From positions 15,895,210 to 15,959,209 of the forward strand of contig NC_081360.1 in assembly GCF_030684315.1 (NCBI RefSeq): 64,000 nucleotides of DNA. The letters run 5' to 3'. This document shows, piece by piece, positions 2,850-64,000 of this stretch. The notes under the pieces are model-generated. The model was not told the origin of the DNA. It worked only from the letters and a program-made list of their open reading frames with translations, and ran no database searches. The position numbers and the translations under genes were made by a program. Origin of the DNA: Stegostoma tigrinum (taxonomy: Eukaryota). Each line of letters starts with the position of its first letter. Positions within the stretch are counted from its first letter, which is position 1.

Positions 2850-2863
2850 ACGCACATGCACGT

Positions 2864-2923
<60 letters not shown>

Positions 2924-35264: not shown

Positions 35265-37195
35265 GTGATTAGAGAATTGTTCCAAAGCAGGATCAGCTGT
35301 GAAGAGTGACTACCAGAGAACGGTCAATGAGCCATAAAAGCTTAAAGTTGAAGCAATGACAATCATCCTCACAATATACCTTGTGTGCGGTCTTTTCTTT
35401 TCAATTTAGCTACCTTTTGTATTGAGAGGATGCACATGTTTGGTTTGGAATAAGCACAATGGCAAGAAATGATCTTGGATCGGAAGGTTTAGAATCCATG
35501 TGGGTGGGGGTTAACCTAACAAGGAGAAGACAACACAAGTGGGAGTAGTTTAGAGGTCCCACAACAGTAGTTGTTGTCTAGGAAAGAAAATAAAATTAGG
35601 AGCTAATGAGGGCATGAAAAAAACAGCAGAATATTAATCATAAGTTACTTTAATTTTCATGTAGATTGGTAAAATTAAATTGATACAGTTGACACAGTTA
35701 GCCACATGCCTAAAAAATTTCCAAGAGATATGTAAAGCATAATTTCCCTTCCACAATCACATGCTGACTTTGTCGAATCCCTTCAACACTTTAAAAAGTT
35801 CTGTTATTACATCATTTATAATAGACACCAACATTTTCTTTACGATGGATGTTAAGCTAACTGGTCTGCTAAAACTCTGTTTTCTCTCCCTCCTTTTTAA
35901 AATAGTTGGGTTACAGTTGTCACCCTCCAATCAGTGTGAACTGATCTGTAGGCTATAAAATTTGAGAAGATGACTACGAATGCATCCAATTATTTCCAAT
36001 ATGACATCCTTTCATATGGTGGGATGTCGATCAGAAACTGAGGATTTGTTATCTTTTAAGCCCCTTAATTTCTGTAGCACCACCTTTTTTAAGATTAATA
36101 CTGATTTTCTTCAACTTTTTGGACCCTTGGCTGTCTAACATTCCTGGGAAATTATTTGTTTCCTCTTGTGAAGATAGAACCAAAGTTGGAGTTGAACTCT
36201 TCTGTCATCTCTGTCCCCTGATAATTTCTCCCTTTTCTTACTGAAAGGGACCTAAACTTGTCTTCATTAATCCTTTACTCTTCACCTATGCATGGAAGCT
36301 TCTACAGTGAGTTTTAATGTTCCCAGCATGTGGACTGTCATAATTTATTTGCCCTCTCTTGGTCCTTTTTTTTTATCTTCTATTGTAGAATGCTAAATCA
36401 CTCCCAATCTCAGGCTTGCTGATGTTACTATCAATTTTACATGTCTCCTATTTCAACCTAATACTCTCCCTAATTTATTTTGTAAGACATGACTGAGCCA
36501 CCTTTCCTGTTTTATTTTGGTGCCAAATCAGAGGGAATAATTCTAGTAATTTATGCATACTTTCCTTCAATATTAACCATAGGCTGTCAACCGTTTTGTA
36601 AGGTTGCCTAATCCATCACTGTCAACACATACATCATATCCTCGTAGTTGCTTTTATTTAGATTCAGAAGCCTCATTTCAAATTCTGTCTTCAACTGTCC
36701 AACTAAATGAACAGTTCTATTGGTTTGTGTTTGCTCCTCCCAAACTGACAATGCACAACAACATTGTTAGTCAATGCCTTCTCAATTCACAAAACACTGT
36801 CCAGGAACACCTAATCTCAAGTTGATTTCTCAATGTGTCTAAAAAGATCACATATACACCCTGGGAAATCCTCCTTAAAGTATGGCTTTTCCAATCCATA
36901 TTTAGATCAATCTTACTCATGATCAGAGTTCTGCACTTATTGCACGTGTCTAACAATGCTATCAGCATTAATCAATATGTTTGGTTATGATAGAGCTGTA
37001 ATTAAGGAGATATAGCTACAAGGATGGAAACTGAACACTAGGAGTAGTCAAGATTTGAAAGGGCAAAGTGTTCAAGATGGTGGCTCACTACTGCCGGCTT
37101 GAGGGCAATCAGGGATGAGAAATGAATGCTCTGTGGTGGTCACATCTAATTAATGATTAAGTAAACAAACCGTCTCTTTTTATTTTTCCATACAG

Positions 37196-37327
37196 AAATA
37201 TTCGTCAAAGCTACAAAATGTGGATTTGGCCAAATTTAGCCCATCGTTAACAACATTTGTAAATCCGCAGTTTGATGAAAAGCAGGATGAACCAGTGAGA
37301 GTCTCCTCACAGCTGTCAGTTGCTCAG
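37196..37327 (+). CDS. Repeat exon R1 (132 nt): KYSSKLQNVDLAKFSPSLTTFVNPQFDEKQDEPVRVSSQLSVAQ
   Basis: tttttccatacAG / CAG|GTAATT, open, homologous to the other repeat exons. Confidence 0.8.
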
Positions 37328-39014
37328 GTAATTCTGAACAGCTGAAACTCGAATCTCACCTCGATAATCCAAAGGTGAAATGAGTTACCAATTGGAAGGG
37401 TCACTAAAATCTATTTGAGGTTAATGGGTCAGGGTGTACGTGTAGTGATTTTATACATACACAGCACAATGCAGTTTATTCACAGCCTCCTCAATGTCGC
37501 TTCAGAGTTTTATGTTCTTTTGGTGTTGTTTAATTTAACCATGATGTTCTTGAGTAGCTGCCTCAAATCATTAATCAGCAGTTTTATTATCAAATGTAAT
37601 TAGAGGCAGCAGATTGAAAGACCTGTGTTTCTGATCAAACTTGGAACAGGAAATGGATGTGGGGCAGGAGTAGTGAATGTGTTGTAATCACATATGCAGA
37701 CCACACAAAAGTAGGTGGAAAGGCAGGCTGCCAAAGGGATACAAACAGTTTGCAGAGAGATATTGATAGGGTAGGTAAGTAAGCAGAATGTTAGCAAATG
37801 GAATATCATATGGAATAATGTGAAATTGTTAATTTTGAAAGAGAGCACAAAAGAACAAGATATGATTTGAATAGAGGGAAACTGCAGAAAGCTGCAACAC
37901 TAATGGACTTCCAGGGTTTCTTGTGCACAAAACACCGAATGCTAGCACACTGTGCAATGGGTAATCAGGAAGGCTAATGGAATGTTGACCCTTATTTCAA
38001 TAGGGTTGGAGTCATGGCACGGTAACCCAATCTGTCATTGCCAACTCACATCCCTACCCTTGTAGTTTCCCTTATTAAGATTCTGGAGCCTAGATTCAGA
38101 GTCAACGCCTTCACTCTCCATTTCAATGAGCAATTCTATCATGTTATGTTTGATCTTCCCTAAAGGACCCTGCACAACATTGTTGTTAATTCATCCATTC
38201 TCATTGCAAAATGCGCAGGCTCAGATCACCTGATTCCCTAGCTTGTTCTTCTATATACCAATTCCAAAGGCATCACATATTTTATCCAGGAAATTCTCCT
38301 TTGCTAATATTGCTAATTTGTTTAGTTTAATCTATGTAGATTGATGTTGCCAATGCTTACAGTTGTACAGATATTACATATGTCCAACAATGTTACTAGT
38401 GCTATATGTTATTCATGATCATGGCATAGTTGCTGTTATGGAAATCTGGTTGCAGATTAACTGAAGATGGAATCTGAACACTGGGGGTATTTAATATATT
38501 TGAAAGACAGACAAAGAGTGAAAGGAGGTGAGGTGACATCGTTAGGAAGGGAGGATATGGGATTTTATGTGGAGTGAGTGAAATATCAAGGGGGAGAAAC
38601 ATTGATGGGGATTGTCTATCAGCCTCAAACAGCAGCAGCTGTAGAAGGGAAAACATTAATCAAGAGATTGGAGACACAGGCACTAAGAAGGGCAGTGTCT
38701 CTCACTTCACTTCTGGAATTCAGGTCTTTTAAACATGATTGGAGCAATGCTCTAGCGAGGTCTAGTTATTGACAAATAAATGCCACACACTATGCTGATG
38801 TAGAACTAATCTGTGTTCCTTCCCTGTTGCTGGGTCAAAGACCTGGATCTCCCTCCCTGATGGAACTGTGGGTATTCTTACATCCCTGCTGTGTTACAGT
38901 TCAAGATGATGACTCACTACTGCCCTCTCAAAAGGGCACTCAGGAAGGGGCAATAAATGCTCAATAGTTGTCATGTCCCATTATTGTACAAGAAAACAAA
39001 TCCTCCCTGGATTT

Positions 39015-39923
39015 TCGGTAGGCATCTGCGGATGACGTTTTGGGGGTTTCCATCCATAGCAAAGAATTTGGACACAGGCTGTTCCTCTTTCTTGCATAGC
39101 TGTATTAGGAAACTATTTAAACAGACCATGACACACTGCAACACTCCGGAACTACACAGGAAAGAGGAAGAGCACCTATACAGAATCCTCACCATAAAGG
39201 GATATCCCACAACTTCATCTGCAGATGCCGACTAAATAGACAACAACAAGAGGACACAGTACACCCTAACACACTGGCCACACTGCCCTACATCAAGACT
39301 ATATTGGAACTTACAACCAGACTCCTATGGCCATGAGGAATCAAGATAGCACACAAGCCCACACCATGCTACAATAAACACTCACAAGGATTAAAGACTC
39401 CATTCCCACAACATGCAGAACCAAAGTGGTTTACAAAATACCATGCAATGATTGCCACAGACATTAGGTCGGACAGACAGCAAGGAAACTAGCCATTAGA
39501 ATACGTGGACAACAACTAGCAGCAAAATGGCATGGCGCACTCTCCTTAATATCTGTATATTCAGACAATGAAGACCATTGGTTTAACTAGGTCAAGGTAA
39601 CTATAGTAGCTCAAGTGAAACATAGACATGCTCGGGAATTCCTAGAGGCATGGTTCTCCACCTGTAATGCAATCTACAAACATATAGAATTGGACCCCAT
39701 ATACAAACCCATGCAGATCAAAACCAGAAATGACACTACTCACCATAACGGCCCAGACAGTATAAATTCCAAGCAGAATAGAACAACATCGCTTCACCAG
39801 AGGCCTCACTGATGATGTCACCTAGCATGGTGATGGAACATCTGACTGAAAACAAGCCAGCTCGACCAGCAAGTCAACAACCTCACCCACAATCCAAGCT
39901 TTAAATCTTTGCTAAAACTTTAA
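39015..39923 (+). mobile_element. Penelope-like element (family 2), decayed, with a short 5' inversion
   Basis: CIRKLFKQTMTHCNTPELHRKEEEHL, VVYKIPCNDC..VGQT (GIY-YIG), HAREFLEAWFS; pLTR with degenerate HHR ctgatgatgtcacctagcatggtgatggaac. Confidence 0.85.
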
Positions 39924-41432
39924 ACTGATTTTCTTCATTTTCTCTCTGGGCCCTTGGTCTCACATTTCTGAGAAATTATCTGTGACCTCTTCTATGAAGA
40001 TAGAACTGAAATAGGTATTCAATTCTTCTGCAAACTCCTTGTTGTCCATTGTAATTTCCCCCACATCTGACATGGGGCCTAAATTTGTTTCCTCTAATCG
40101 TATTCTCTTCACATGTTAATAGAAGGTAATACAAACAGTATTTTATAGTCCCTCCATGTTTACTCTCATTCTTTATTTTAGCTCTCTGATCAAATTTTTG
40201 TCCTCTTTTGCTGATTTCTGATTTGCTCCTAGTCCTCAGGCTTGCTGCTTTTTCTGCCTCTTTTGATCTAATACTCTTCCTAGTTTATTTTGTAAATCAA
40301 GTTTGCACCATGTTTCCTGTTTTATTTTTGAGCCAAATCAAGCATAATTCATTGTAATTCATGCATATATTGCTTCAATATTAATCATAGCCCATCCGCT
40401 GCCAATCCTTTTCGTAAGATTCCCAAAACATCGTTGCCAACTCATAACCTCATACGCTCAGTTTCCTTTTTTTAGATTCGGGACACTAGTTACTAGTTTC
40501 AGAGTCAACATCTTCACTGTCCATCTAAATGAACAATCCCATCCATCTATGTTTGCTGTTCGCAAATATACCCAGCACAACAACATTGTTAATTAATCCT
40601 TACTCAATGTAGAACACACAGTCCAGCTTCATCCATACTCAGATTGGTATTTCAATGTATCAGTCTAAAATGTACCACAACTAGAACCAAGAAACCCTTG
40701 TCCACACTATTATTGCTAACTTGGTGTGCACCAAATATATGTATGTCACCTATGTTTACATTCTACACTTTTTGCATATGTCTAACAATACCACCAGCTC
40801 TGAACATTATCAATGGTTATGATACAGTTGAATTTATGGAGATATGGCAGCATGTTCAACAAGGATGGGATCTGAACACCAGGGCGATTCAATACTTGGG
40901 ATAGACAGGCAAAGAGTGATAGGAGGACAGATAGAGTTGTCAGTAAGGGAGGATATTGGCTGGGAAAATCGTGATATGGAATTGCTTGGGGAGCAAGTGA
41001 AATACAAAGGGGCAAAAACATTGATGGGAGCTCTGCTTCAGCCCCAAACTGTGGCGGACCTGTAAGGGAAAGCTTTAAATCGGAGATTAAAGACATACGC
41101 AGTGAGAGGCATGTAACTCTCGCTTCACTTCTGGAATTCAGTTCTTCTGAACATGTTTGGAACAAGGATCTAGTGAGGTCTGGTTATTGCTGAATAAATG
41201 CCACACACTGTGCTGACTTGGAACTAATCTGCATTCCTTCACTGGGTCAAACACCTGGATCTCCCTCCTAATGGAACTGTAAGTATTCCTACCATCCCGC
41301 GCTGCAGCACTTCAAGATGGTTGCTCACTACTGCCCTCTCAAGGGCAACCAGGAATGGTTAACAAATGCTCAGCGATGCTCACATCCCATTAATGTTCAA
41401 GAAAACAAATCTCTTTTTATATTTCAATACAG

Positions 41433-41546
41433 AAACTTTTATCAGAACGACGAAGTAGTCCCTCCTTATCAGCATCTGTAAATCCACGAGACAATGAAAA
41501 GCAAGATCAAGTATCAGGGACAGCCTCAGAGCCGTCAATTCTTCAG
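41433..41546 (+). CDS. Repeat exon R2 (114 nt): KLLSERRSSPSLSASVNPRDNEKQDQVSGTASEPSILQ
   Basis: atttcaatacAG / CAG|GTAATG, in-frame 18-nt deletion relative to R1. Confidence 0.8.
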
Positions 41547-41570
41547 GTAATGACCAACTCCCAAACTGGA

Positions 41571-41669
41571 AGTTCTGAGGAAGGGTCACCAGATCTGGAA
41601 AGTTAACAGTGATTTTCCTTCACAGATACTGCCAGACCTGCTGAGCTTTTCGAGCAACTTCTGTTTTTG
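41571..41669 (+). mobile_element. Short pLTR-type insertion, TSD tcccaaactgg (duplicate copy at about 43306-43404)
   Basis: tctgaggaagggtcaccagatctggaaagttaac..gacctgctgagcttttcgagcaacttctgtttttg between direct repeats. Confidence 0.7.
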
Positions 41670-43167: not shown

Positions 43168-43281
43168 AGATATTTATCAGAGCAACAAAGAAGTCCATCC
43201 TTATCAGCATCTTTAAATCCACAGGACAATGAGGAGCAACATGAAGTATCAGGGACAGCCTCAGAGCTGTCAATTCTTCAG
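43168..43281 (+). CDS. Repeat exon R3 (114 nt): RYLSEQQRSPSLSASLNPQDNEEQHEVSGTASELSILQ
   Basis: catttcaatacAG / CAG|GTAATG, sister copy of R2. Confidence 0.8.
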
Positions 43282-44079
43282 GTAATGACCAACTCCCAAA
43301 CTGGAAGTTCTGAGGAAGGGTCACCAGATCTGGAAAGTTAACAGTGATTTTCCTTCACAGATACTGCCAGATCTGCTGAGCTTTTCGAGCAACTTCTGTT
43401 TTTGTCCCAAACTGGTATCTCACTGCAGTAATCCAACAGTCAAATGATTTACTCATAGGAAGGATCACTAAAATGTGTTTGAGGTTGATGGGTCAGGGCG
43501 TGTGTGTGGTGATTTTGCACAGACACAGCACAATGCAGTTTATTCATCCCCCATCAACATCATTTCAGAGTTTTACGTTTTGTTTTGCTGTTATTTGATT
43601 TAACCAAGGTGTTCTTGTGTGACTGCTTTGAGATCATTAATCAGCAGTTTTATGATCAAATATAATTAGGGACAGCAGATTGAAAGATATGGATTTCAGA
43701 GCAAACTGGGAACAGAACATGGGATGTGAGGGAGGGGTTGAGATGTGCTCTTTGACGTATGCAACAAATAACAGGGTAATGTGTGAGCTATGTAGACTCC
43801 AGGATTGACTCCAGTATTTTCCCCGTGACTGGTGTTAAGCTATCAGGTCTGTGACTGTCTGTTATTTCTCTCCCTATTATGTTCCTTCCCTGTTGCTGGG
43901 TCAAAGACCTGGATCTCCATCCCTAGTGGAACTATGGGTATTCCTGCAGCAGTTCCAGATGGTTGCTTACTACTGCCCTCTCAAAAGAGCACTCAGGGAG
44001 GGACAATAAATACTCAATAGTAGTCACATCCCATTAAGGTATAAGAAAACAAATTCTCTCCGTTTATATTTCAACACAG

Positions 44080-44208
44080 AAATATTTATCAAGACAACTA
44101 AGTGTGAATAGAAACAAATCAAGCCCATCCTTAGCAGTATCTGAAAATCCACAGGGCAAAAAGCAAGATGAAGCAGTTCGGACATCCTCAGGGCTGTCAG
44201 TTCATCAG
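44080..44208 (+). CDS. Repeat exon R4 (129 nt): KYLSRQLSVNRNKSSPSLAVSENPQGKKQDEAVRTSSGLSVHQ
   Basis: atttcaacacAG / CAG|GTAATT, open. Confidence 0.8.
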
Positions 44209-44359: not shown

Positions 44360-45601
44360 GAACATAGAACACAGAACAACTCAGCGCAGAACAGGCTCTT
44401 CGGCCCTCGATGTTGTGCCGACCTGTGAACTAATCTAAGCCCCTCCCCCTACACCATCCCATCAATATCCGTATGCTTACACAAGGACTGTTTCAATGCC
44501 CCTAAAGTGGCTGAGTTCACTACATTGGCAGGCAGGGCGTTCCATGCCCTTACCACTCTGAGTAAAGAACCTGCCTCTGGCATCTATCTTAAATCTATCA
44601 CCCCTCAATGTGTAGCTATGCCCCCTTGTACAAGCTGAAGCCAGCATCCCCGGAAAAAGACTCTCACTGTCCACCCTATCTAATCTTCTGATCATCTTGT
44701 ATGTCTCTATTAAATCCCCTCTTAGCCTTCTTCTCTCCAAAGAGAACAGACCCAAGTCCCTAAGCCTTTCTTCGTAAGGCCTGCGCTCCAGATCAGGCAA
44801 CATCCTGGTAAATCTCCTCTACACCTTTTCCAATGCTTCCACATCCTTCCTGTAATGGGGCGACCAGAACTGCACGCAATATTCCAAATGAGGCCACACT
44901 AGCGTTTTGTACAGTTGCATCATGACATCACGGGTCCGGAACTCAATCCCTCTACCAATAAAACCTAACACACCGTAAGCCTTCTTAACAGCACTATCAA
45001 CCTGGGTGGCAACTTTCAGGGATCTATGTACATGGACACCAAGATCCCTCTGCACATCCACACTACCAAGAATCTTTCCATTGACCTGGTATTCTGCCTT
45101 CCTATTATTCCTCCCAAAGTGAATCACCTCACATTTATCCATATTAAACTCCATTTTCCACCTTTCGGCCCAATTCTGCAGTTTATCCAAGTCTCCCTGC
45201 AACCTGCAACATTCTTCCACACTGTCCACCACTCCACCAACTTTAGTGTCATTTGCAAACTTACTAACCCATCCACCTATGCCTGCATCCAAGTCATTTA
45301 TATAAATGACAAACAGCAGTGGCCCCAAAACAGATCCTTGAGGCATGTCACTAGTAACTGGACTCTAGGCTGAATATTTTCCATCAACCACCACTCGTTG
45401 CCTTCTTACAGAAAGCCAGTTTCTAATCCAAACTGCTAAATCTCCCTCAATCCCGTGCCTCTGTATTTTCTCCAATAGCCTACCATGTGGAACCTTATCA
45501 AAGGCTTTACTGAAGTCCATGTACACCACGTCAACTGCCCTTCCCTCATCCACATGCTTGGTCACCTTCTCAAAAAACTCAATGAGGTAAATTTCAATGA
45601 G
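44360..45601 (-). mobile_element. Fairly young 5'-truncated CR1 LINE, TSD gttta
   Basis: VDVVYMDFSKAFDKVPH, PQGSVLGPLLFVIYINDL, FANDTK; GTTCTAT-type tail; one stop and frameshifts; TSD at 44355-44359 and 45602-45606. Confidence 0.95.
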
Positions 45602-45935
45602 GTTTATTCATGCCCCCGTCAGGATCATTTCAGATTTTTATGTTCTTTAATTTAACCAGGAGTGTTTTGAGTACCTGCCTCAGATTATTAATCAGACATT
45701 TTGTGATGAGAGGCAGCAAATAGAATATTCTGGAATTCTGATGAAACTTTTAACAGGATGTAGGGTAGAAAGGAGAGGTTATGGGGTGCTCTGGGCGGTC
45801 TTTGATGTATGCAACATGTAACACTGTAATGTTTTGGCTGTGTAGACTCAGCAACCTCACGGTTTGTAAAGGGGTGGGCTACAAGGTGTGGATTCTGCAT
45901 ATCTGTGAGGCCACGTAAAGGCACAAAATCTGTTT

Positions 45936-46240
45936 GGTGGTGCAGTGGTAATGTAACTGGGCAATGATTCAGAACTCCAGACGTGTGATGATTGCCATAA
46001 GATCATTGTTAATTCTCATAAGAATCCATCTAGTTCACTAGTATGCTTTATGGAACGAAACCTGCCATCTTCACTTGATCAGCCCTATGTGTCCATCCAG
46101 TTCCACAGCAAGGTGGTTGACTTTTCATTGTGCTCTGAGATGACCCAACTAGCCACTCACTTCAAGTTCAATTAGTGATGGGCAACAAATGCTGGCCCTG
46201 TCAACAACACCCAAATCCCGTGAGAGAAGAAAAGAAAGAA
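45936..46240 (+). mobile_element. tRNA-derived Deu-type SINE (SacSINE1-like), internally deleted
   Basis: A-box ggtggtgcagtggt, central catctagttcacta..aaacctgcc..cacagcaaggtggttgact, and the tail shared with the family-2 LINE. Confidence 0.65.
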
Positions 46241-46259
46241 ACAGCTCTTAAATGAGAGT

Positions 46260-46910
46260 GGCTTTCTGCTTCAGTGGCCCACTTCACAGCGCAGGAATAT
46301 GGCTAATGAACTTATCATAGTGGCAATGATATACTGCAATATATTGCGCTGGCACCCCAGAGGCAGAGGGACAGGTAATAGATGAGAGGCGAGGGGAAGA
46401 GGTATTTGGTGATGACATCACACGGGACATGGTGGAAATGGTAAAGGATAATCCTTTGAATATGGAGCCCGTTGGAGTGGAATGTGTAGACAAGGGGAAT
46501 CCTATTCTGTTCTTGAGAGGGAGGAGCAACAGTAGAAACTCAGAAAATGGACGGGACACAGTTGAACACCCCGTCCATCACAGTGAAGGGGAATGCACAT
46601 TAAAGGAGATGGAAGACATGTCCAAAGTACCTTGGTAGAAGGTACTTCATCAGCACAAAGTAATGGAGATGGAGGACCTGAGAGAGTGGAATGGAGACCT
46701 TATGGCAAGCAGAATGTAAGAGGGTCTAGTCGAGCAAGCTATGGGTGTTTCTGTGGACTTGTGACAAGCATTAATAGACACTTATCCCCAGAAATTCAAT
46801 CATAAAAGTCAGGTATACAAATTGTCAAGGACGGGTTGGGTGAAGGTGAGAGAACGGCCGAAAATTGGAAATGTAAGTTGATGACAGATTTTTGTTCCAA
46901 GCAAAAGCTG
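46260..46910 (-). mobile_element. Old Penelope-like fragment (paralogous copy at about 42227-42640)
   Basis: NRIGFPLSTHSTPT-like remnant of RIPLVLTYHPT; homologous to 52900-53350. Confidence 0.6.
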
Positions 46911-48127
46911 GAAGAGCCTTAGATACAGTTGTTAATTTATTGGGTAAAGAGATGGGTGTGAGACTTTCCAAGTATTCTGTTATTGTATCTTTTGGAATGG
47001 ACTCCAACATTTCACCATGACTGATGTTAAACTATCTGGCCTGTGCTTCTCTGTTATTTTTCTCCCTCCTTTTTTAAATAGCTGCATTACATTTGCCACC
47101 CTCCAACCTATAGGAACTGCTCCATACTCTACAGATTTTGAGAGAATGACCACCAAATACGCTTCCATATTTCCAAGGCCACTTCCTTTAATATGCAGGG
47201 ATGTTGATTATCAGGAACTGAGAATTTTTCAGCCTTTAGTCATGTTAATTTCCAAAGCTCCATTTCTTTTCTTACCACTGCTTTTCTTCAATTTGTACCA
47301 ACTCCCTGGATCTCTGGTTGCCTAATATTTCTGGGTAATTATTTGTGCCCTTTTTTATGATGACAGAATTAAAGTAGTTCAGTTCTCTCTGCTATTTCTT
47401 TGTTTCCCATTATAATTTATCAGTTTCTGGACTGCAATGACATAAATTTGTCTCCTCTAATTTTATTCTCTTCATCTATTTGTAGAAGCTTTCACGGTCA
47501 GTTTGTATGTTTCTGACAAATGTATGCTCACACATTATCTTCCCTTTTTAGATCAATATTTTGTCCTCATTTGCTGAACTCTGAGGTGCTTCTAGTCCTC
47601 AGGCTTGCTGCTTTTTCTGTTTCACTTCTTAATTTATTCTTGGAAGTCATGATTGAGCCCTAAACGATACCAGTGCTGGAAGGGAAGGCATTAAATGAGA
47701 GATTAGACACCATAGCCTGTCCACTGCCATGTCTTTTCGGCCACTTTCCCCATCTGTCAGGGCCAACTTAGACTCCGAGTTACATTTACTTACATTCCAG
47801 GACCTGAGTTTCAGAATCAATGTCTTCACTCTCCATCTTAATAAACAATCCAGTCGTTTTATGTTTGATCTTCCCTAATGGAATAAATGCAACACACAAT
47901 GCTAATGTGGAATTAATATGTGTTCCTTCCCTGTTACTAAGTCCATCATCTAGACCCCCCTCACTATCGGAGCTGAATATTCCTACAGCCCTGCCCTGCA
48001 GGAGTTCAAGGTGGCGGATTAATACTGCCCACTGAAGGGCAATCAGATATGGGCAAAACCCGCTCAAAGCTGCTCACTTCACATAATGGATATGAAATGA
48101 ATCTTCTCCTCTTATGTGTCAAATCAG

Positions 48128-48259
48128 AGATATTCATCACGGCGAATAAGTATGAATGTGAACACGTGGCACACATCAGCAGAAGAATTTGGAAATCAAC
48201 ACAACGATGAAAACCAAGATGATGCAGAACCCGATTCTTCACATACTACAGCTGCTCAG
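48128..48259 (+). CDS. Repeat exon R5 (132 nt): RYSSRRISMNVNTWHTSAEEFGNQHNDENQDDAEPDSSHTTAAQ
   Basis: tgtgtcaaatcAG / CAG|GTAATA, open. Confidence 0.8.
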
Positions 48260-49465
48260 GTAATAACTAACTGCCTAAACTGGGATCTCACTTCAATAAT
48301 TCAACAGTGACATGAGTTACCAAACAGGAAGGGTCATTAATATCTGTTTGAGTTTGATAGGTCAGGGTGTGTATGTAGTGAATTTGTACATGCACATCAC
48401 AATGCAGTCGATTTGTAAGAACTCAATATCACTTGAGTTTTTTTTCATTTGATATTATTTAATTTAAGATTTAATGCTTCAGATCATTAATCAGCATTTC
48501 ATTCTCAATTACACTTAGAGGCAACAGATTGAAAGACCTGGATATCTGATGATATATGGAACAGGACATGGGGTGGGAAGGAGATGTTGAAGTGTGCTCT
48601 GGGTAGTCTTTGACCTATCCAACATGTAACAGTGTGCAGTGTGCGGCTGTGCAGGCTGAAGCCCAAACAACCTCATGGTTTGTAAAAGGGTGGTCTACGA
48701 GGTTGATCCTTTGAATATGGAACCTCTCAGTTGGAAGATGTAGACAAGTTGAATAACCAAACCTGTTTCAGAGAGGTCTCTATGTTCCTCCAAGTTCACT
48801 GTTGTACTTTATTAAACCCCAAATGATCCATTCTGTTGTGCTATTACCCTGAATTCTAAACAGCTTAGTTAGCAGGCTGGCTGATTTTAATGATGATCAT
48901 TTATGTCTCCTCTTTCAATGGAAAGCCACCTTAATTTTGTTTTATAATTCTGGTTAACACCACGTGATTTGTTTTGCATTTGTGCCAAATAAGTGTAAAG
49001 AACTACAGGAACTCATATCTCCAATCCTTCAATGTTAACTGTAGTCTGTCCACTGCCATGTCTTCTAGGTCAGTTGCCCCATCTCTCAGTATCAAATTAG
49101 ATCGCAAAACCTCCTAGTTCCCTTTAAACCCAATCCAGTATCTTAGTTTCAGAATGAATGTCTTCACACTCCATCTTAATAAACAATTCAGTCGTTTTAT
49201 GTTTGCTCTTCCCTGATTAAACAAATGTGATACACAATCCTGACGTGGAACTAATCTGTGTTCCTTCTGTTTTGCTGGGTCCACAAACTGGATCTCCCTC
49301 CATAACAGAACTCCATATTTCTATACCATGGCCCTGCAGGGGTATAAGGTGCCGCTCAAAACTGCCCTCTAGGGGCACACAGGGATGGGCAATAAAGGAT
49401 CAATGGTGCTCACATTCCATTAACGTGCAAGAAAATAAATCCTCTCCTCTTATGTGTCAAATCAG

Positions 49466-49597
49466 AGATATTCATCACGGCGAAAAAGTGTGAGTGTGAA
49501 CACATGGAACTCATCAACAGAAGAATTTGGAAATCAACACAACGATGAAAACCAAGATGATGCAGAACCGGGTACTTCACATACTACAGCTGCTCAG
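49466..49597 (+). CDS. Repeat exon R6 (132 nt): RYSSRRKSVSVNTWNSSTEEFGNQHNDENQDDAEPGTSHTTAAQ
   Basis: tgtgtcaaatcAG / CAG|GTAATC, open. Confidence 0.8.
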
Positions 49598-50973: not shown

Positions 50974-51105
50974 AGATATTTATCACGGCGAAAAAGTGTG
51001 AGTGTGAACACATGGAACTCATTAGCAGAAGAATTTGGAAGTCAACACAACGATGAGAACCAAGGTGGTGCAGAAGGGAGCTCCACACAAACTGCAGCTG
51101 CTCAG
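50974..51105 (+). CDS. Repeat exon R7 (132 nt): RYLSRRKSVSVNTWNSLAEEFGSQHNDENQGGAEGSSTQTAAAQ
   Basis: tttgtcaaatcAG / CAG|GTAATC, open. Confidence 0.8.
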
Positions 51106-51954: not shown

Positions 51955-53467
51955 GATAACAAAGTGCGGAGATGGCCAAGCAGCATCTCAGGAGCACAAA
52001 AGCTGACGTTTCGGGCCTAGACCCTTCATCAGAGAGGGGGATGGGGAGTGGGAACTGGAATAAATAGGGAGAGAGGGGCAGGCAGACCGAAGATGGAGAG
52101 AAAACAAGATAGGTAGAGAGGAGAGTATAGGTGAGGAGGCAGGGTGGGGATAGGTCAGTCCAGGGAAGACGGACAGGTCAAGGAGGCGTGATGAGGTTAG
52201 TAGGTAGGAAATGGAGGTGCGGCTTGAGGTGGGAGGAAGGGATGGGTGAGAGGAAGAACAGGTTAGGGAGGAAGAGACAGGCTGGGCTGCTTTTGAGATG
52301 CAGTGGGGGGAGGGGATGAGCTGGGCTGGTTTTGGGATGCAGTGGGGGAAGGGGAGATTTTGAAGCTGGTGAAGTCCACATTGATACCATTGGGCTGCAG
52401 GGTTCCCAAGCGGAATATGAGTTGCTGTTCCTGCAACCTTCGGGTGGCATCGTTGTGGCACTGCAGGAGGCCCATGATGGACATGTCATCTGAGGAATGG
52501 GAGGGGGAGTTAAAATGGTTCGCGACTGGGAGGTGCAGTTGTTTATTGCAAACCGAGCGGAGGTGTTCTGCAAAGCGGTCCCCAAGCCTCCACTTGGTTT
52601 CCCCAATGTAGAGGAAGTCACATCAGGTACAATGGATACAATATACCACATTGGCAGTTGTGCAGGTGAACATCTGCTTAGTATGGAAGGTCATTTGGGG
52701 CCTGGGATGGGGGTGAGGGAGGAGGTGTGGGGGCAAGTGTAGTACTTCCTGCGGTTGCAGGGGAAGGTGCCAGGTGTGGTGGGGTTGGAGGGCAGTGTGG
52801 AGCGGCCAAGGGAGTCGTGGAGAGAGTGGTCTCTCCGGAAGGCAGACAAGGGTACGGATGGAAAATTGGCTTGGGTGGTGGGGTTGGATTGTAGATGGCG
52901 GAAGTGTCGGAGGATTATGTGTTGTATCCGGAGGTTGGTAGGGTGGTATGTGAGAACGAGGGGGATCCTCTGGGGGCGGCTGTGGTGGGGGTGGGGTGTG
53001 AGGGATGTGTTGCTGGAAATGCGGGAGACGCGGTCAAGGGTGTTCTCGACCACTGCGGGGAGAAAGGTGTGGTCCTTGAAGAACGTGGACATCTGGGATG
53101 TGCGGGAGTGGAATGCCTCATTCTGTGAGCAGATGTGGCGGAGGTGGAGGATTTGGGAATAGGGGATGGAATTTTTGCAGGAGGGTGGGTGAGAGGAGGT
53201 GTATTCTAGGTAGCTGTGGGAGTCAGTGGGCTTGAAATGGACATCAGTTTCTAGCTGGTTACCTGAGATGGAGACTGAGAGGTCCAGGAAGGTGAGGGAT
53301 GTGTTGGAGATAGCCCAGGTGAACTTGAGGTTGGGGTGGAAGGTGTTGGTGAAGTGGATGAACTGTTCGAGCTCCTCTGGGGAGCAAGAGGCGGCGCCGA
53401 TACAGTCATCAATGTAACGGAGGAAGAGGTGGGGTTTGGGGCCTGTGTAGGTGCGGAAGAGGGACTG
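51955..53467 (-). mobile_element. Penelope-like element (family 1): RT C-terminal half + GIY-YIG + pLTR, 15-bp TSD ttagatctcatcaca
   Basis: FLRYIDDCIGA, FHPNLKFTW, TFLDL, KPTDSHSYL RT motifs; LYIGETK..LGDRFAEH; TSD at 51940-51954 and 53468-53482. Confidence 0.95.
52005..52032 (-). ncRNA. Minimal hammerhead ribozyme core (intact consensus)
   Basis: Reverse complement reads CTGATGA-AGGGTCTAGGCCC-GAAAC-GTC. Confidence 0.72.
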
Positions 53468-53837: not shown

Positions 53838-53969
53838 AGATATTTATCACGGCGACAAAGTGTGAATGTGACCACACGGAGCTCATCAGCGGCAGCATTT
53901 GGAAATCAACACAACGATGAAAACCAAAGTGATGCAGGAGCGAGTTCTTCACATACTACAGCTGCTCAG
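53838..53969 (+). CDS. Repeat exon R8 (132 nt): RYLSRRQSVNVTTRSSSAAAFGNQHNDENQSDAGASSSHTTAAQ
   Basis: tttgtcaaatcAG / CAG|GTAATC, open. Confidence 0.8.
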
Positions 53970-55553: not shown

Positions 55554-55685
55554 AGATATTTATCACGGCGACAAAGTGTGAGTGTGAACACATGGAACTT
55601 ATTAGTAGAAAAATTTGGAAATCAACACAACGATGAAAACCGAGATGATGCAGAAGAGAGCTCCACACAAACTGCAGCTGCTCAG
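55554..55685 (+). CDS. Repeat exon R9 (132 nt): RYLSRRQSVSVNTWNLLVEKFGNQHNDENRDDAEESSTQTAAAQ
   Basis: tttgtcaaatcAG / CAG|GTAATC, open. Confidence 0.8.
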
Positions 55686-55879: not shown

Positions 55880-56232
55880 TTATTCATTTATTCATTAACG
55901 GGATGAGTACATCACTGGCTCGGCAACATGTATTGCCCATCCCTCATTCCACAGAGTTCAGTTGAGAGTCAACCACATTGCTGTGGGTCTGGAATCACAT
56001 GTAGCCCAAACCCGGTCAGGATGGCAGTTTCCTTCCTTAAAGGGCATTAGTGAATCAGATGGGTCACAATGGGCAATGGATTCATGGTCATCTTTAGATT
56101 CTTAATTCCACATACTTTCTTGAATTCAAATTCCACTATTTGCCATGGCAGGATTTGGACCCAGGTCCTCAGAATATTATCTGGATTTCTGGATTAACAA
56201 TCCAGCAATAATAGCACTAGACATTGCCTCCC
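55880..56232 (-). mobile_element. Duplicate of the SINE at 54181, at the equivalent site of the next unit
   Basis: Same flanks ttgtttcatttt / ttgtttaattt and same internal sequence. Confidence 0.8.
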
Positions 56233-57886
56233 CATTGTTTAATTTAACGGTTAATGCATCAGATCATTAATCAACATTTCATTATCAATTATAATTAGTG
56301 GCAGCAGACTGAAAGACCAGGATTTCTGACAATAAATATGTTGGGAAGGAGAGGTTGCGGTGTGCTCTGTGTAGTCTTTGACATATACAACATGTAACAG
56401 TGTAATGTGTGGGCTGTGCAGACTGAATGCCAAGCGCTCTCATGGCCTGTGAAAGCTTAGGCTAGAAGATGATCCTTTGAAGATACAGCTTATTTGTTAT
56501 TAGATGTCAGCAAGGGCATTCCCCTGTCCATTCCTGAGACTGTCCTCTGCACCCTGCAAGTTTACTGTGAAACTTTATTTTCCCGCTAATGATCCATTCT
56601 GTTGTGCTATTTTGCTGAATTCTAAACTCTCCCTTGTCCTCACGTTTGCTGATGTTTCTGCTGATCTTTTACGTTTCCTCTCTCAGTGGAAAGCCTCCTT
56701 ATTTTTATTTTATAATTTAAGGTTAAGTCACATGACCTGCTTTATATTTGTGCCAAATCAGTATGAATAATTGTTGTAATTCATGTATGCAGTCTTTCAA
56801 TATTAACCATAGCATATCCAACTCTTTTTGCAAGCTTTGACAATACATCACTGCCAAATCAGAACCCAGACCCTCTTAGTTCTCTTTCACTTTCTGTTCA
56901 GGACCCTAGTTTCAGAATCATTGTCCTCACTCTCTGTCTTAATTAATAATTCTATCATTTTATATTCATTCTTCCCTAACAGACTCTAGAAAACAGCATT
57001 GTTCATTAATCAGTTCTCATTGCACAATCAACAGTCAGGATCCTACTATCTCTCTCCCTCACCTGATCTCTGGTTGGTTTCTCAACGTGTGAGCCTAAAA
57101 AGCATCAGATATAAAATCCAGGAATTCTTCCTCCACAGTATGATTGCTACTTCAGTTTGTTCAGTCTCGAGTTATATTAATGTTACATGTGATCACATTC
57201 GTAACTAATTGCACGTGTCTAAGAATGCACCCAGTGCAAAACTCTATCCACGGTTATGATATAGTTGAAATTATGAAGATATTGCTGCAGGTTGCTATAA
57301 GGATGTAAGCTGAACAACAGTCAGGGGTATTCAATCTTTTGGAAGGACAGACAAATAATGAAAAGAGGTGAGGTAACATTGTCAGTAAGGGAGGATAATG
57401 GCTTTGAAAGTCATTACATGGAATTTTTTTGGGAAGTGTGTGAAATGTCAAGGGTCATCAACATTGACGAGCATTTCATCTAGGCCCTAAACAGTAGCAG
57501 CAGTGTAAGGGAAAGTGTTAAACAAGAGATTAAAGACACAGGCTATAAGAGGGTAGTAACCCTCAGTTCATTTCTGGAATTCAGCTCTTTTTAACATGTT
57601 TGTAACAAGACTGTGGTGAGGTCTGGTTAACACTGAATAAATGCCACAAATTAAGCTGATGTGGAACTGGTCTGTGTTCCGTCCTTGTTGCTGGGTCCAA
57701 GACATTTATCTCCCACCCTAATGCAACTGTGGATGTTCCTGCGATCCAGATCTGCAGCAGTTCAAGCTGGTGGCTCACCACCGCCTTCTAAAGGGCACAC
57801 AGGGATGAGCAATAAATGCTCAATGGTGCTCACATTCCATTAATGTACCAGAAAATAAATTGTCTCCTTTTTTTTTCTCAAATCAG

Positions 57887-58035
57887 AAATACTTATCAAG
57901 GCAATGAAGTGTGGATGTGGACATACTGAACCCATCATCCACAGTATTAGTAAATCCACAGTATTAGTAAATCCACAGGAAAATGAAAACAAAGGTGATG
58001 CAGAAGAGAGATTCGCACAAACTTCAGCAGCTCAG
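57887..58035 (+). pseudogene. Repeat pseudo-exon psiR10
   Basis: TGA at codon 7, 17-bp tandem duplication (atccacagtattagtaa; 149=132+17 nt), donor mutated to CAG|ATAGTA; acceptor intact. Confidence 0.85.
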
Positions 58036-58133
58036 ATAGTAACTAACTGCCTAAACTGGGATCTAACTTTGATAATTCAACAGTGAAATGAGTAACCAAT
58101 AGGAAGGGTCACTAATATTTGTTTGAGCTTGAT

Positions 58134-58253
58134 GGGTCAGGGTGTGTGTGTGCTGAGTTTGCAGGGTCAGGGTGTGTGTGTGGTGAGTTTGCAGGGTCAG
58201 GGTGTGTGTGTGTTGTGAGTTTGCAGGGCCAGGGTGTGTGTGTGGTGAGTTTG
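58134..58253 (+). repeat. Minisatellite, 4 x about 30 bp (gggtcagggtgtgtgtgtggtgagtttgca)
   Basis: Direct tandem copies; single copy in the other units. Confidence 0.9.
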
Positions 58254-59887
58254 CGCATGCACAGCACAGTGTAGTCTATTCATAAGCTCTCAGTGTCATT
58301 TCAGAGATTTATCATTTTTCCTGTGTTGTTTAATTTAACCAGGGCATTCTTGACATATTGCATCTGATCATTAATCAGCAATTTTATTATCAAATGAAAT
58401 TAGAGGCAGCAGTTTGAAAGACCTGGATTCCAGCTGAAACATGGAACAGGACATGGGGGTGAGAAGGAGGGGTTGAGGTGTGCTCTGGGTAGTCTTTGAC
58501 ACATCCAACATGTAACAGTGTAATGTATGGGTTGTGTGGGCTGAACACAATGATGGCCTATGAAAGGATGGTCTAAGAAATGCTCTGTTGAATAGGGAGT
58601 CTGTTGGAAGATGTAGACAAGGGAAATGTCCAATCCATTTCTGAGAGTTTTATATGTTTCCTACAATTTTACTGTGATACTTTATTTTCCTCCTATAGAT
58701 CCATTCTGTTGCTGAATCCTAAATGGCTTCTAGTCCTCCAGGCTACTGATATTTCTGCTGGTCTTTTATGCCTCAATCGAAAGCCATCCTAATTTTTCTT
58801 TGTCATTTCTGGCTAAACCACATTACCTGTTTTATAACTGTGCCAAATCAGTGTGAATTATTGTTGCCATTCATACATTAAATCCTTCAAGATTCACCAT
58901 AGCCTGTCTACTACCAAGTGTTTTAGTATGGTTCCCTAATCCATCATTGCCAACTCACATTGCAGACCCCCTTTAGTTACTTTTCAGGACCCTAGTTTCA
59001 GAGACAATATTTTCACACTCCATTTTAATAAACAGTTCTATCATTTTATGCTTGCTTTTCCCTAACGGACACTAGAATACAACATTGTGCAATGAGAATT
59101 GGTTAAGTAACAATCAACAATCTAAGATCATCTGATCTCTGGTTGCAAGTCTGAAAAGTATCAAATAGATAGCCCAGGAATTCCTTCTCTACAGTATTAT
59201 TGCCAATTCAGTTTGTCCAGTCTAAAAGTAGGTTAATGTTTGGCATGACGACATTCGTACACTTATTGCTTGTGTCTAACAATGCGACTAGTGCAAAGCA
59301 ATATCCATGGTTATGTTATAGCTGCAATTACAGAAACATAGCTGCAGGTCAAATAAGGATGGAATTTGAACTGCCAAAGATTTTCAATATTTTGGAAGGA
59401 CAGACAATAGGTAAAGGAGCCGAGGTAGTATTGTCAGTAGGGGAGAATATTGGCTCGGAAAATCATAACATGAAATTTTTTGGGTGTTGAGCGAAATGCC
59501 AAGGGACAGAAATATTGGTGGGGTTGTATGTAAACCCCAAACAGTAGCAACGGTGTAAGGGAAAGCATTAAACAAGAGGTTAAAGACAGAGGCAATAAGA
59601 GGTCAGTAGTTCTTGCTTTGCCTACGGAGTTCAGCTCTTTTGAACATGTTTGGAACAATGCTCTCGTGGGGTCTGGTTAATGCTGAATAAATGTCATGCA
59701 CTATACTGACTTAGAACTAATCTGCTTTCCTTCCCTTTTGTTGGGTCAAAGACCTGGATCTCCCCTTCTAACAGAACTTTGTGTATTCCTTCAGCCCGAC
59801 CCTGTGGCAGTTCAAGGTGGCAGCTCACTACTGCCCTCTCAAGGGCAATCAGGGATGGACAATAAATGCTTAACGGTGCTCACATCC

Positions 59888-61620
59888 TATAGTGATTGGA
59901 ACCAGGTTGACTATAATGACTAAGGGATACTTGATTGGGGTTGTTCACCTTGGTCAATCAAGAAAGCCCTGGGTGACCAATATAACCGGGAGATTAGAAA
60001 CTCCTCAGTTCAGGGGACTGACTCCAAGCTGGCTGGTGCACAAATAAATGAAGGGTGACTTGGTGATGGGTACCAGCCTCTGTACATGCCTGAAGAAAAT
60101 TCGCGTGCAACGGCCATCTTGGAGTTGGGTAAGCATTTCTGGCATTATGTCTTTATTTGAGAACGTTGACTCTTTTGATCCTGCAGTCGAAGACTGTGCC
60201 CAGTATGTGGAATTCATGCAATTTATTTATGGGCAAATGATGTTGGGGTGGACGAAAAACAATAAGTAATCATTCTGGCATGCTGCGGAGCTGCAGCATT
60301 TTCTGTTATAAGAGGCTGAACTTTCCAAGGGGCACCCAACACTAAAACCTTCCAAGTGTTACGGAATATCATGCCTCAAACCTCCTCTAATTCTGAGACG
60401 CTATTGGTTTTATTCGGCTGTTAGAGAACCGGGGGAATCTATATTGGGATTTTTGATGAGGTTAAGTTGACCAGAAGAGTCATTTGATTTTGGCTTTACC
60501 CTGAATGAGATGCTGAGAGACCGTTTGGTATGTGAAATTAATGGCGAAACTGTGCAGACCCATCTACAAGCTGAAGACCAACTGGGCGCAAACGGGCACT
60601 ACAACTGGCTTTGTTGTTTGAAAATGCAGCAGGTGGAGCACGGGAAATGCAGGGCATCCCAATGCAAGTGGACACCCTCACCTGTCTGACTGAGCTTGGG
60701 GAACACCACTTGAGTGCAGGCAATCACAGAGCCTCAAGCAGGGCACATCCTGAGCAGAGGGACCGGAGGCCAGACCACAACAAAGCCAGGCCTCAGCCAA
60801 GTGGCTAAAAAGTTCTTCAGGATCTGGGCCAGCAGGCCATGGTATTTGCTGCTGTTTGCAGACTCGAGACAACAAAAGAGCCCTACAAGGCCCAACTTGA
60901 GTAAGAAAACTTGTAGGGCAGTACTAGGAGAGTGCTCACCCCGGAATGTCCCTCGACGTGTGGATTGGAACGATTAAATTGCTTAGTGACGTCCAAGTCA
61001 GAGCCGATTAAAATTAATGTTTGGTTAAATGGTCACCAGCTCCCATGGAGATCGAAACTGGTGCAGCTGTATCTGTAGTTGCAGAAGCTGTCTCTTGCAA
61101 AATTCACTCAGGACTCCAAACCTTAAGCTTGTACAAGACGTCAGCCAGAGTGAGAACGTACACTTGGGAACCATTGCAGACTAAGGGTTCTGATCACCTA
61201 TGAGTAGCAATTAATGCAGTTACCACTGATGGTGTGAAAGGCTCGAGTCCAAGCCTGCGCCCTTTTCCAGCAGACCACGGAGAACATTTTACAAGGACTA
61301 CCCCAGGTCACCTGGATGATGTGTTAGTAACAGGAAGGACCATTAAACGGGCACTTGGAGAACTTTGAACTAGTGTCTAAATGTTTCTCCCAGGTGGGTG
61401 TACTCCTGAGAAGGGAAAAATGTGTGTTCCAGGTGCCGCAAGTGACCTACTTGTGTAACTGGTTTTGTTGACTCTGTAACACCCATTGGAAGAGAAAGTG
61501 AAGTCGATCAAAGGGTCCCTGGCACCAACATCTGTACCAGAGCTTTGGTCTTTTTTTGGCTTATTGAATTATTACAGAAAATTCATCTATAACCTGGCCT
61601 CCATCCTGGCACTCTAACAC
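59888..61620 (+). mobile_element. Decayed Gypsy LTR retrotransposon (5' LTR, gag, protease, partial RT), 3'-truncated
   Basis: MSLFENVDSFDPAVEDCAQYVE gag, EMLRDRLVCEIN, MEIETGAAVSVV (DTG protease remnant), LDDVLVTG, REKCVF, FFGLLNYYRKFI. Confidence 0.9.
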
Positions 61621-62231
61621 TCGTTGCAATTACAGAGACATGGCTGCAGGTTAAATAAGGACAGAAACTGAACTGCAAGGAGTAGTCAGTCTTTTGGAAG
61701 GACAGGCAAATAGCGAAAGGAGGTGAGGTAACATTGTCAGTAAGGGAGGATAGTGGCTAGGAAAATCATCACATAGCATTTTTTGAGAAGTTACAGAAAG
61801 GCCGAGGACCGAAACCATTGATGGGAGTTGTAAATAGGCCTGAAACAGTAACAGGAGTGTAAAGGGAAAGCATTAAACAAGAGATTAGAGACACAGGCAA
61901 CAAGAAGGCAATAACTCTCTGGAGTTCAGCTCCTCGCAACATATTTGGAACAAGACTCTACTGAGGTCTGGTTGATGCTGAATAAATGCCACACCCAATG
62001 ATGATTTGGAACTTGTCCGTGTTCCTTCCTTTGTTACTGGGTCAAAGACCCGGATTGCTCTCTCAAACAGAACAGTGAGTATTCCTACAGCCCTGCTGTG
62101 CAGCAGTTCAAGGTGGTGGCTCACTACTGCCATCTGAAGGGTGATCAGAGATGGGCAAATAGCACTCAATGCTGTTCACATCCCATTAATGCATAAGAAA
62201 ATAAATCCTCCTCTTTTAGTTGTCAAATCAG

Positions 62232-63926
62232 AGTTAGTTGTCACAGCAACAGTGTGGATGTGAACACATGGAGCCCATCATTCACAGCATTTGTAACTCA
62301 ACACAAGGATGAAATCCAAGGTGATGCAGAAGAGAACTCCACACATATTAGGATTGACAAGATTGACAAGTCGCCAGGCCCGGACCAGATTTGTCCTCGG
62401 CTGCTTTGGGAAGCGAGAAATGCAATTGCTTCGCCACTTGCGAAGATCTTTGCATCCTCGCTCTCCACTGGAGTCGTACCTGAGGACTGGAGAGAGGCAA
62501 ATGTAATTCCTCTCTTCAAGAAAGGAAATAGGGAAATCCCCGGCAATTACAGACCAGTAAGTCTCACGTCTGTCGTCTGCAAGGTGTTAGAAAGGATTCT
62601 GAGGGATAGGATTTATGACCATCTGGAAGAGCATGGCTTGATCAAATACAGTCAACACGGCTTTGTGAGGGGTAGGTCATGCCTCACAAACCTTATCGAG
62701 TTTTTTGAGGATGTGACTAGAAAAGTTGATGAGGGTCGAGCTGTGGATGTGGTGTATATGGACTTCAGTAAGGCATTTGATAAGGTTCCCCATGGTAGGG
62801 TCATTCAGAAGGTCAGGAGGAATGGGATACAGGGGAACTTAGCTGCCTGGATACAGAATTGGCTGGCCAACAGAAGACAGCGAGTGATAGTAGAAGGAAA
62901 ATATTCTGCCTGGAAGTCAGTGGTGAGTGGGGTTCCACAGGGCTCTGTCCTTGGGCCTCTACTGTTTGTAATTTTTATTAATGACTTGAATGAGGGGATT
63001 GAAGGATGGGTCAGCAAGTTTGCAGACGACACAAAGGCCGGAGGGGTCGTTGACAGTATAGAGGGCTGTTGTAGGCTGCAGCGGGACATTGACAGGATGC
63101 AGAGATGGGCTGAGAGGTGGCAGATGGAGTTCAACCTGGATAAATGCGAGGTGATGCATTTTGGAAGGTCGAATTTGAAAGCTGAGTACAGGATTAAGGA
63201 TAGGATTCTTGGCAGTGTGGAGGAACAGAGGGATCTTGGTGTGCAGATACATAGATCCCTTAAAATGGCCACCCAAGTGGACAGGGTTGTTAAGAAAGCA
63301 TATGGTGTTTTGGCTTTCATTAACAGGGGGATTGAGTTTAAGAGTCGTGAGATCTTGTTGCAGCTCTATAAAACTTTGGTTAGACCGCAGTTGGAATACT
63401 GCATCCAGTTCTGTTCGCCCTATTATAGGAAAGATGTGGATGCTTTGGAGAGGGTTCAGAGGAGGTTTACCAGGATGCTGCCTGGACTGGAGGGCTTATC
63501 TTATGAAGAGAGGTTGACTGAGCTTGGTCTCTTTTCATTGGAGAGAAGGAGGAGGAGAGGGGACCTAATTGAAGTATACAAGATAATGAGAGGCATAGAT
63601 AGAGTTGATAGCCAGAGACTATTTCCCAGGGCAGAAATGGCTAGCACGAGGGGTCATAGTTTTAAGCTGGTTGTAGGAAAGTATAGAGGGGATGTCAGAG
63701 GCGGGTTCTTTACACAGAGAGTTGTGAGAGCATGGAATGCGTTGCCAGCAGCAGTTGTGGAAGCAAGGTCATTGGGGTCATTTAAGAGACTGCTGGACAT
63801 GCATATGGCCACAGAAATTTGAGGGTGCATACATGAGGATCAACTGTTGGCACAACATTGTGGGCTGAAGGGCCTGTTCTGTGCTGTACTGTTCTATGTT
63901 CTATGTTCTATATTACAGCAGCTCAG
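62232..63926 (+). pseudogene. Repeat pseudo-exon psiR11 (62232-62350 + 63916-63926), split by a CR1
   Basis: TAG at codon 2 and a 2-bp deletion (130 nt total); last codons and GT donor resume after the CR1 tail. Confidence 0.85.
62351..63910 (+). mobile_element. Young 5'-truncated CR1 LINE with uninterrupted RT ORF (to stop at 63822), TSD atatta
   Basis: KSPGPD, NYRPVSLTS, QHGF..GRSCLTNL, DFSKAFDKVPH, VPQGSVLGP, FADDTK; (GTTCTAT)3 tail; TSD at 62345-62350 and 63910-63915. Confidence 0.97.
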
Positions 63927-64000
63927 GTAATCATTAACTGCCTAAACTGGGATCTCATTTCAATAATCCAACAGTAAGATGAGTTACCAAATAGGAAGGG

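Follow-up and report, generated by a model that had tools for sequence, protein, structure and literature searches.

A tandem array of short exons in Stegostoma tigrinum raises the question of which protein these exons belong to, whether they are still translated and what has kept their reading frames open. The array lies in a stretch of 64,000 nucleotides (contig NC_081360.1 of assembly GCF_030684315.1, forward-strand positions 15,895,210 to 15,959,209), which we call the window; positions are counted from its first letter, and signed positions may lie outside it. From the sequence evidence assembled here, the repeat exons very likely form the tail of a ~165-kb shark C2CD6/CatSper-tau gene, and we are confident that they would still be translated. 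It also seems probable that the array represents a modular, length-variable and skippable disordered tail on the CatSper targeting subunit, likely with multiple predicted sites for protein kinase A (PKA).

Host gene and anatomy of the array

Self-comparison of the window delineates a family of units, 70-88% identical, that extends from ~35.8 kb to the window end (Table 1). An acceptor-side intron module is present in 13 copies between 37,001 and 62,243. Nine of them precede exons that are bounded by AG and GT and have open phase 0-0 frames, and in both exon-less units a mobile element begins at the expected exon position. Once insertions are removed, the period of R5-R9 is 1338, 1323, 1351 and 1355 bp. 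This anatomy (13 units, nine intact, two dead and two exon-less, together with lengths and period) had been described in an initial annotation of the window, and re-measurement confirmed every number; the dead exon R10 was confirmed as well, to which the loss of its donor can now be added. None of the 12 single exons scanned gave a Pfam match over the cut-off, and an ESM Atlas search with the repeat region returned no usable match. The ~180 bp before each acceptor (e.g. 49269-49465) correspond to a dispersed repeat resembling a short interspersed nuclear element and recurring dozens of times in a 664-kb region that includes the window. The exon site of the second exon-less unit is occupied by a decayed mobile element (59887-61620), by eye similar to a long terminal repeat retrotransposon.

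The host gene emerged from a profile search with the nine repeats, which found a 1913-amino-acid protein of Chiloscyllium plagiosum (E 1.6e-141) and an 863-amino-acid protein of C. punctatum; a HMMER scan of 1.84 billion representatives added one protein each of Scyliorhinus canicula and Hemiscyllium ocellatum, giving four shark proteins in total. The C. plagiosum protein contains PF15729 (CTSRT, CatSper targeting subunit tau; E 1.6e-26). This family, the only one found in full-length relative proteins, was over the cut-off in all four full-length shark or ray relatives scanned (E 1.6e-26 to 5.8e-30), and an N-terminally incomplete relative had none. Within the 664 kb, the C. plagiosum protein maps exon by exon, in order and on the plus strand, from ~-70,100 to +92,088, with an extra exon at -73,300. 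The array and its window sit between the exons matching residues 1064-1106 and 1546-1578, the exons that match PF15729 occur in the expected sequence at 47-70 kb upstream of it (67-96% identity to the C. plagiosum protein), and the last exon of the gene retains an intact 142-codon frame, 70% identical to that of C. plagiosum. A genome-wide search with the PF15729 profile gave no match, but its control search was silent too. In a structure model of a skate relative, an eight-strand N-terminal domain was obtained at low confidence (predicted local distance difference test, pLDDT, 40-54), and the top Foldseek matches of this model were almost all C2 domains (best E 1.2e-4, root-mean-square deviation 8-13 Å).

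A novel orphan protein is ruled out by PF15729 and the exon-by-exon match to the C. plagiosum protein. The suggestion of a lineage-specific protein was therefore not borne out: the array is very likely the tail of a vertebrate gene, and its repeat is common to bamboo sharks and catsharks. Our protein searches returned only cartilaginous fishes, which, given word-based searches and length limits, is weak evidence for absence elsewhere, and a PDB sequence search with one shark relative protein yielded no matches.

Selection on the frame and history of the copies

Frames and splice sites of the repeat exons are retained much more often than neutral change would predict. In the alignment of the R1-R9 exons only gaps of 3 and 18 nucleotides occur, and all 22 pairwise gaps, which go back to two events, are multiples of 3; among the distinct intron indels, 34 of 39 are not. 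When a natural exon with AG/GT was evolved neutrally along the intron tree, none of 4000 simulations run at the measured frameshift rate left at least nine of 11 copies intact, and none of 4000 did so at half that rate; with indels switched off, the outcome was reached in 4 and 1 of 4000. All five of R5-R9 stayed intact in 6, 26 and 95 of 10000 simulations, respectively. These simulations support selection on the frame, and so does the control that the initial annotation had proposed, a comparison with random windows: none of 1334 combinations of overlapping intron windows and strands was both open and in frame in all of R5-R9.

In our reading, what selection would preserve is the frame, the length class and a small set of columns, and not the sequence in its entirety. 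Purifying selection across the full repeat is rejected, as the proportion of nonsynonymous differences (pN) exceeds that of synonymous ones (pS) among R5-R9. Ten of the 44 columns share their commonest residue in three lineages (Y2, R5, R6, S8, F21, D27, Q30, D31, S37, Q44). Both CpGs of the Arg-Arg codons are kept in all five of R5-R9 and both are lost in R10 and R11; no intron CpG column (0/32) is kept in at least four of the five units. A third exon CpG, with its C at a synonymous position, is likewise kept in all five, so that splicing constraint or gene conversion may account for part of this retention.

An internal comparison is offered by a full-length second copy of the gene, paralog B, which lies head to head on the minus strand from -182,400 to about -297,500; a single-exon search found exactly two loci, the array gene and this paralog. 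Paralog B has no counterpart of the block from +27 to +68 kb, array included, and neither the unit module nor the repeat was found in its locus. Its last exon carries a 14-nucleotide deletion with an early stop. The N-terminal exons of both copies are 93-99% identical and the tail exons much less so (pN 0.021 vs 0.205). A ~10-kb stretch (-373..9352) is about 89% identical between the copies, compared with 72-82% elsewhere, which suggests gene conversion between them. S. canicula and S. torazame also have two such proteins each, one repeat-rich and one repeat-poor.

The history of the copies can be read from their introns. Neighbouring units are sisters in the intron tree (support 100 for R2/R3, 88 for R6/R7 and 94 for R8/R9, with 97 for R5-R9), and within both R2/R3 and R8/R9 the two units have repeat insertions at a common position, which fits stepwise tandem duplication. 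The proposed tandem duplication with birth and death of copies is supported by these data; copies would have been gained and lost through unequal crossing-over, as we infer. The array had further been described as both expanding and decaying. Its decay is evident from the dead exons R10 and R11, and the claim of expansion does not hold: even the two most similar units, R2 and R3, differ by about 11% in their introns, whereas identical repeat copies are found in the relatives C. plagiosum and S. torazame. That the array is still expanding in S. tigrinum is thus rejected; its growth here is old, and it is now eroding.

Eight proteins were scanned for copies (E under 1e-4; an additional S. torazame row was assigned to a second repeat). 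They contain nine copies in C. plagiosum, six in C. punctatum, one in H. ocellatum (a partial model), 6 + 2 in S. canicula, 18 + 2 in S. torazame and none in Narcine; the skate protein checked, which is possibly partial, also had no repeat. Copies cluster by lineage (16 label changes vs 31.6 after shuffling), based on 44 columns only and with many forks open. Phase 0-0 is not special to the array, as all 15 non-repeat tail exons tallied have the same phase. The donor-side intron flank of the unit recurs behind or close to a number of further tail exons of either paralog (E 4.5e-7 to 0.008), and together with the phase 0-0 exons this makes it likely that part of the tail goes back to earlier rounds of such duplication. 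The same flank accompanies a dead exon near +68.4 kb, which may be an older unit.

As every tail exon is phase 0-0, a copy could be gained, lost or skipped without a frameshift, and dead copies would simply be omitted from the mRNA. The in-frame exon skipping that had been predicted is suggested by the annotation of a relative: compared with isoform X1, four of seven S. torazame isoform models lack one or two whole 44-amino-acid repeats and one of seven lacks a 61-amino-acid second repeat. In Narcine, all 17 isoform models differ from X1 by in-frame deletions in the tail. These isoforms are RefSeq annotation models, not reads.

The repeat motif and competing readings

Each repeat consists of a short basic head, one serine and an acidic, Ser/Thr-rich body. 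The pattern [RK]R-x-[ST]-hydrophobic stands at the same columns in 42 of 53 aligned copies (a count that excludes a single row from the second catshark repeat) and in five of the nine live exons of S. tigrinum, and we take R-R-x-S/T-hydrophobic to be the PKA consensus. The second S. torazame repeat carries the motif 16 more times. No secondary structure is predicted over the repeats, and 801 of 863 residues have a pLDDT below 50.

The mouse C2CD6 protein is testis-specific and located in the flagellum; both the organisation of CatSper and male fertility depend on it, and it is reported to become tyrosine-phosphorylated on capacitation (10.1101/2021.07.06.451342; 10.1101/2021.08.16.456347). PKA regulatory subunits relocate beside the CatSper domains upon capacitation (PMC12167957). 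A PKA role of the repeats is conceivable on this basis, although we regard it as tentative and slightly more doubtful than not. In the least certain step of the proposed mechanism, repeat number would set the count of PKA sites and hence the amount of switchable charge on the tail. A bolder version, which we consider rather unlikely, is that sharks repeatedly and independently multiplied exons with one PKA site each, whose number and skipping would serve as a phosphorylation dial on CatSper-tau, tuned per species by sperm storage or competition; the predicted motif copies behind it number five in S. tigrinum, nine in a bamboo shark and up to 34 in a catshark, with few or none in the sister gene.

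Several findings weigh against a modular tail with PKA sites, and some of them would fit exons that are translated but only provide a disordered spacer tolerant in length and charge, with the RRxS motif inherited by descent and not regulatory. The ratio of nonsynonymous to synonymous change (dN/dS) is near or above 1: for R5-R9 it is about 1.6 (pN 0.144, pS 0.092), with few synonymous sites, and the tail comparison of the array copy with paralog B gives 0.81, which suggests no overall purifying selection on amino acids. R1-R4 persist without the full motif, paralog B manages without the whole block, and the ray protein has neither the repeat nor a single such motif in its tail. The motif counts are not independent either, since the copies share descent, the low pLDDT is also expected from an alignment of six rows, and reads can mis-map between the near-identical repeats behind the catshark isoform models. 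Moreover, mouse short isoforms of ~557 amino acids retain the C2 domain without the long tail, and long and short isoforms are not known to differ in function (10.1101/2021.07.06.451342). A pure spacer does not readily explain, however, why R5, R6 and S8 are among the only ten columns common to three lineages, why the expanded families have the motif when it is missing from all four copies that stayed unexpanded, those of the short catshark paralogs, and why the different second repeat that expanded in S. torazame has it as well. We therefore consider such a spacer improbable, but worth keeping in mind.

The same applies, to a much lesser degree, to the possibility that the tail of the array copy recently went untranslated and that its nine open exons merely reflect selection in the past, which we regard as very unlikely. 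This would account for the lesions of the tail, all of which also count against current translation. The tail exon 11187-11303, upstream of the array, ends in an in-frame TAG (CAG in paralog B), and its inclusion would stop translation before the array. Three tail exons of paralog B are absent from the array copy, the exon near +68.4 kb is dead through a 2-nucleotide deletion and loss of its donor (intact in paralog B), the exon at +963 is cut relative to paralog B, and the exon at +83.2 kb has a GC donor (+83.4 kb) where paralog B has GT. In addition, two repeats are dead, no duplication is recent and dispersed repeats cover about 30% of the array. Yet translation of the array requires skipping of the TAG exon, and both splice signals of this exon are degraded (acceptor 2.2 and donor -0.7, vs 7.3 and 6.6 in paralog B, scored with a simple frequency-based weight matrix rather than MaxEnt), as expected of a silenced cassette. 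The last exon is intact here and carries its early stop in paralog B instead, all nine live repeats retain AG/GT and frame, and the sole exon variant among the contig matches listed is synonymous. None of the lesions would close the frame, provided that the broken exons are left out of the mRNA.

That the array is an assembly artefact, or a neutral tandem repeat with chance open frames, is largely refuted already and can be given hardly any weight. Short-read contigs, from two samples of one study of which one is possibly the source of the assembly, do not cross the entire array in any single case; where they match unit-specific sequence, the differences number 0-7 (e.g. 45559-47844 and 57368-60000). 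The units are 11-30% apart and carry private insertions, homologous repeats are present in annotated proteins of five other shark species, and neither the neutral simulations nor the window controls reproduce the open frames. A translated, exon-modular tail remains our preferred reading.

Features of the locus and relation to known systems

Besides the array, the window contains eight further tail exons (Table 1). A homologue of the GC-donor exon at +83.2 kb is present in 16 copies in S. torazame.

Table 1. Tail exons, repeat units and insertions in the window (nt, nucleotides; aa, amino acids).
Feature	Position	Strand	Remarks
Tail exon	963..1142	+	3' part replaced relative to paralog B after ~1087; weak phase-0 donor at 1142 could serve
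Tail exon, phase 0-0, near-identical to paralog B exon	2596..2718	+	
Tail exon, phase 0-0	8972..9100	+	
Tail exon ending in TAG, likely skipped	11187..11303	+	Degraded splice signals
Tail exon, phase 0-0	15434..15550	+	
Tail exon, phase 0-0	17701..17898	+	
Tail exon, phase 0-0, absent from paralog B	27236..27322	+	
Tail exon directly before array, phase 0-0, absent from paralog B	35136..35264	+	
Exon array, 13 intron+exon units	35730..64000	+	Last unit continues to ~64,350
Repeat exon R1	37196..37327	+	132 nt, 44 aa, without RRxS motif
Exon-less unit, acceptor-side module only, then mobile element	38795..39005	+	
Repeat exon R2	41433..41546	+	114 nt, 38 aa
Repeat exon R3, sister of R2	43168..43281	+	114 nt, 38 aa
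Repeat exon R4	44080..44208	+	129 nt, 43 aa
Repeat exon R5	48128..48259	+	132 nt, 44 aa, RRxS-hydrophobic motif, weak acceptor
Repeat exon R6	49466..49597	+	132 nt, 44 aa, RRxS-hydrophobic motif, weak acceptor
Repeat exon R7	50974..51105	+	132 nt, 44 aa, RRxS-hydrophobic motif
Young retroelement insertion, unit R7-R8	51955..53467	not assigned	15-bp target-site duplication
Repeat exon R8	53838..53969	+	132 nt, 44 aa, RRxS-hydrophobic motif
Repeat exon R9, sister of R8	55554..55685	+	132 nt, 44 aa, RRxS-hydrophobic motif
Dead exon R10	57887..58035	+	149 nt, TGA, 17-bp internal duplication, donor lost (GT to AT)
Exon-less unit, then mobile element	59706..59885	+	
Dead exon R11, 5' part	62232..62349	+	Stop at codon 2; R11 total 130 nt
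LINE (long interspersed nuclear element)-like insertion splitting R11	62350..63914	+	5-bp target-site duplication
Dead exon R11, 3' part with donor	63915..63926	+	

The neighbourhood resembles that of mammalian C2CD6. In order, the locus has TRAK-like exons with HAP1_N/Milton matches (minus), STRAD-like exons (plus; E 2e-5 to STRAD-alpha), paralog B (minus), a peptidase S51 gene and the array gene (plus), and TMEM237 is found on the same contig, 4.4 Mb distant. We take TRAK2-STRADB-C2CD6-TMEM237 to be the human gene order around C2CD6. In PMC11893943 these four genes are only named side by side in a list. Further CatSper subunits are encoded in the S. tigrinum genome, with exons of CATSPERG (E 1.7e-21), CATSPERB (E 1.4e-11) and, weakly, CATSPERD (E 0.007), and CatSper genes have been reported from cartilaginous fishes (PMC2572835). 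Between the paralogs lie a 334-codon C2H2 zinc-finger frame, the peptidase S51 (dipeptidase E-like) gene and, at -104.4 kb on the plus strand, a 310-codon Thr/Pro-repeat frame followed by a poly-Asp run, with only a low-complexity match to Cornifin. Downstream of the array gene we noted a methyltransferase exon on the minus strand and 19.7 kb of N (+189,488 to +209,203).

The C2CD6 gene and tandem exon duplication are already known, so that the array is neither a new protein family nor a new mechanism. Like mammalian C2CD6/CatSper-tau (ALS2CR11), the shark gene combines an N-terminal PF15729 domain, presumably of C2 type, with a long low-complexity tail and, by the isoform models of relatives, several splice forms. 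By description, the tails differ: the long 3' part in mouse includes a ~5-kb coding exon (Als2cr11b), whereas the shark tail consists of at least 25 short phase 0-0 exons with tandem repeats, in a duplicated gene. The C2CD6-like proteins of bamboo sharks and catsharks (XP_043550413, GCC37326, XP_038646194, XP_072338559) have the same 44-amino-acid repeat in the same tail position and with the same motif. Their copies are identical or nearly so and reflect recent expansion, up to 18 plus 16 of the second repeat, in contrast to the S. tigrinum copies, which are at least 13% apart with two dead. These records are labelled "uncharacterized", "hypothetical" or "futsch-like"; XP_038646194 of S. canicula, named "microtubule-associated protein futsch-like", has PF15729 and the repeat, and further segments of its tail are present two or three times.

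Length evolution in a cytoplasmic part of the same channel complex is also reported for the CATSPER1 N-terminus of primates and rodents, where indels are reported to have been positively selected (PMC2572835, with reference to Podlaha and Zhang 2003 and Podlaha et al. 2005). In CATSPER1, small indels fall inside one exon, whereas in shark C2CD6 whole exons would be gained, lost and skipped. Repeated symmetric exons with birth and death of copies and in-frame skipping are known from NBPF/Olduvai, ANKRD36, titin PEVK and TCOF1. The shark repeat shows no homology to these and has no Pfam family at a meaningful E-value; in particular, the Pfam scan of the 12 exons gave no match to Olduvai or ankyrin-family repeats. 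In the literature searched on C2CD6/CatSper, shark sperm and tandem exons, which mostly leaves out subscription journals, we found no description of the exon-modular shark tail, its lineage-wise expansions or the paralog pair; the supplements of 10.1101/2021.07.06.451342 and 10.1101/2021.08.16.456347, which may contain orthologue alignments, fall outside this statement.

Several mis-labelled shark proteins can now be named as relatives of C2CD6/CatSper-tau. With in-frame exons throughout and a repeat number that ranges from 0 to 18 between genes and species, sharks provide a natural series for the role of the CatSper-tau tail. Since live and dead copies stand side by side and the sister gene lacks the block, the function of the tail and of its predicted PKA sites becomes testable by comparison.

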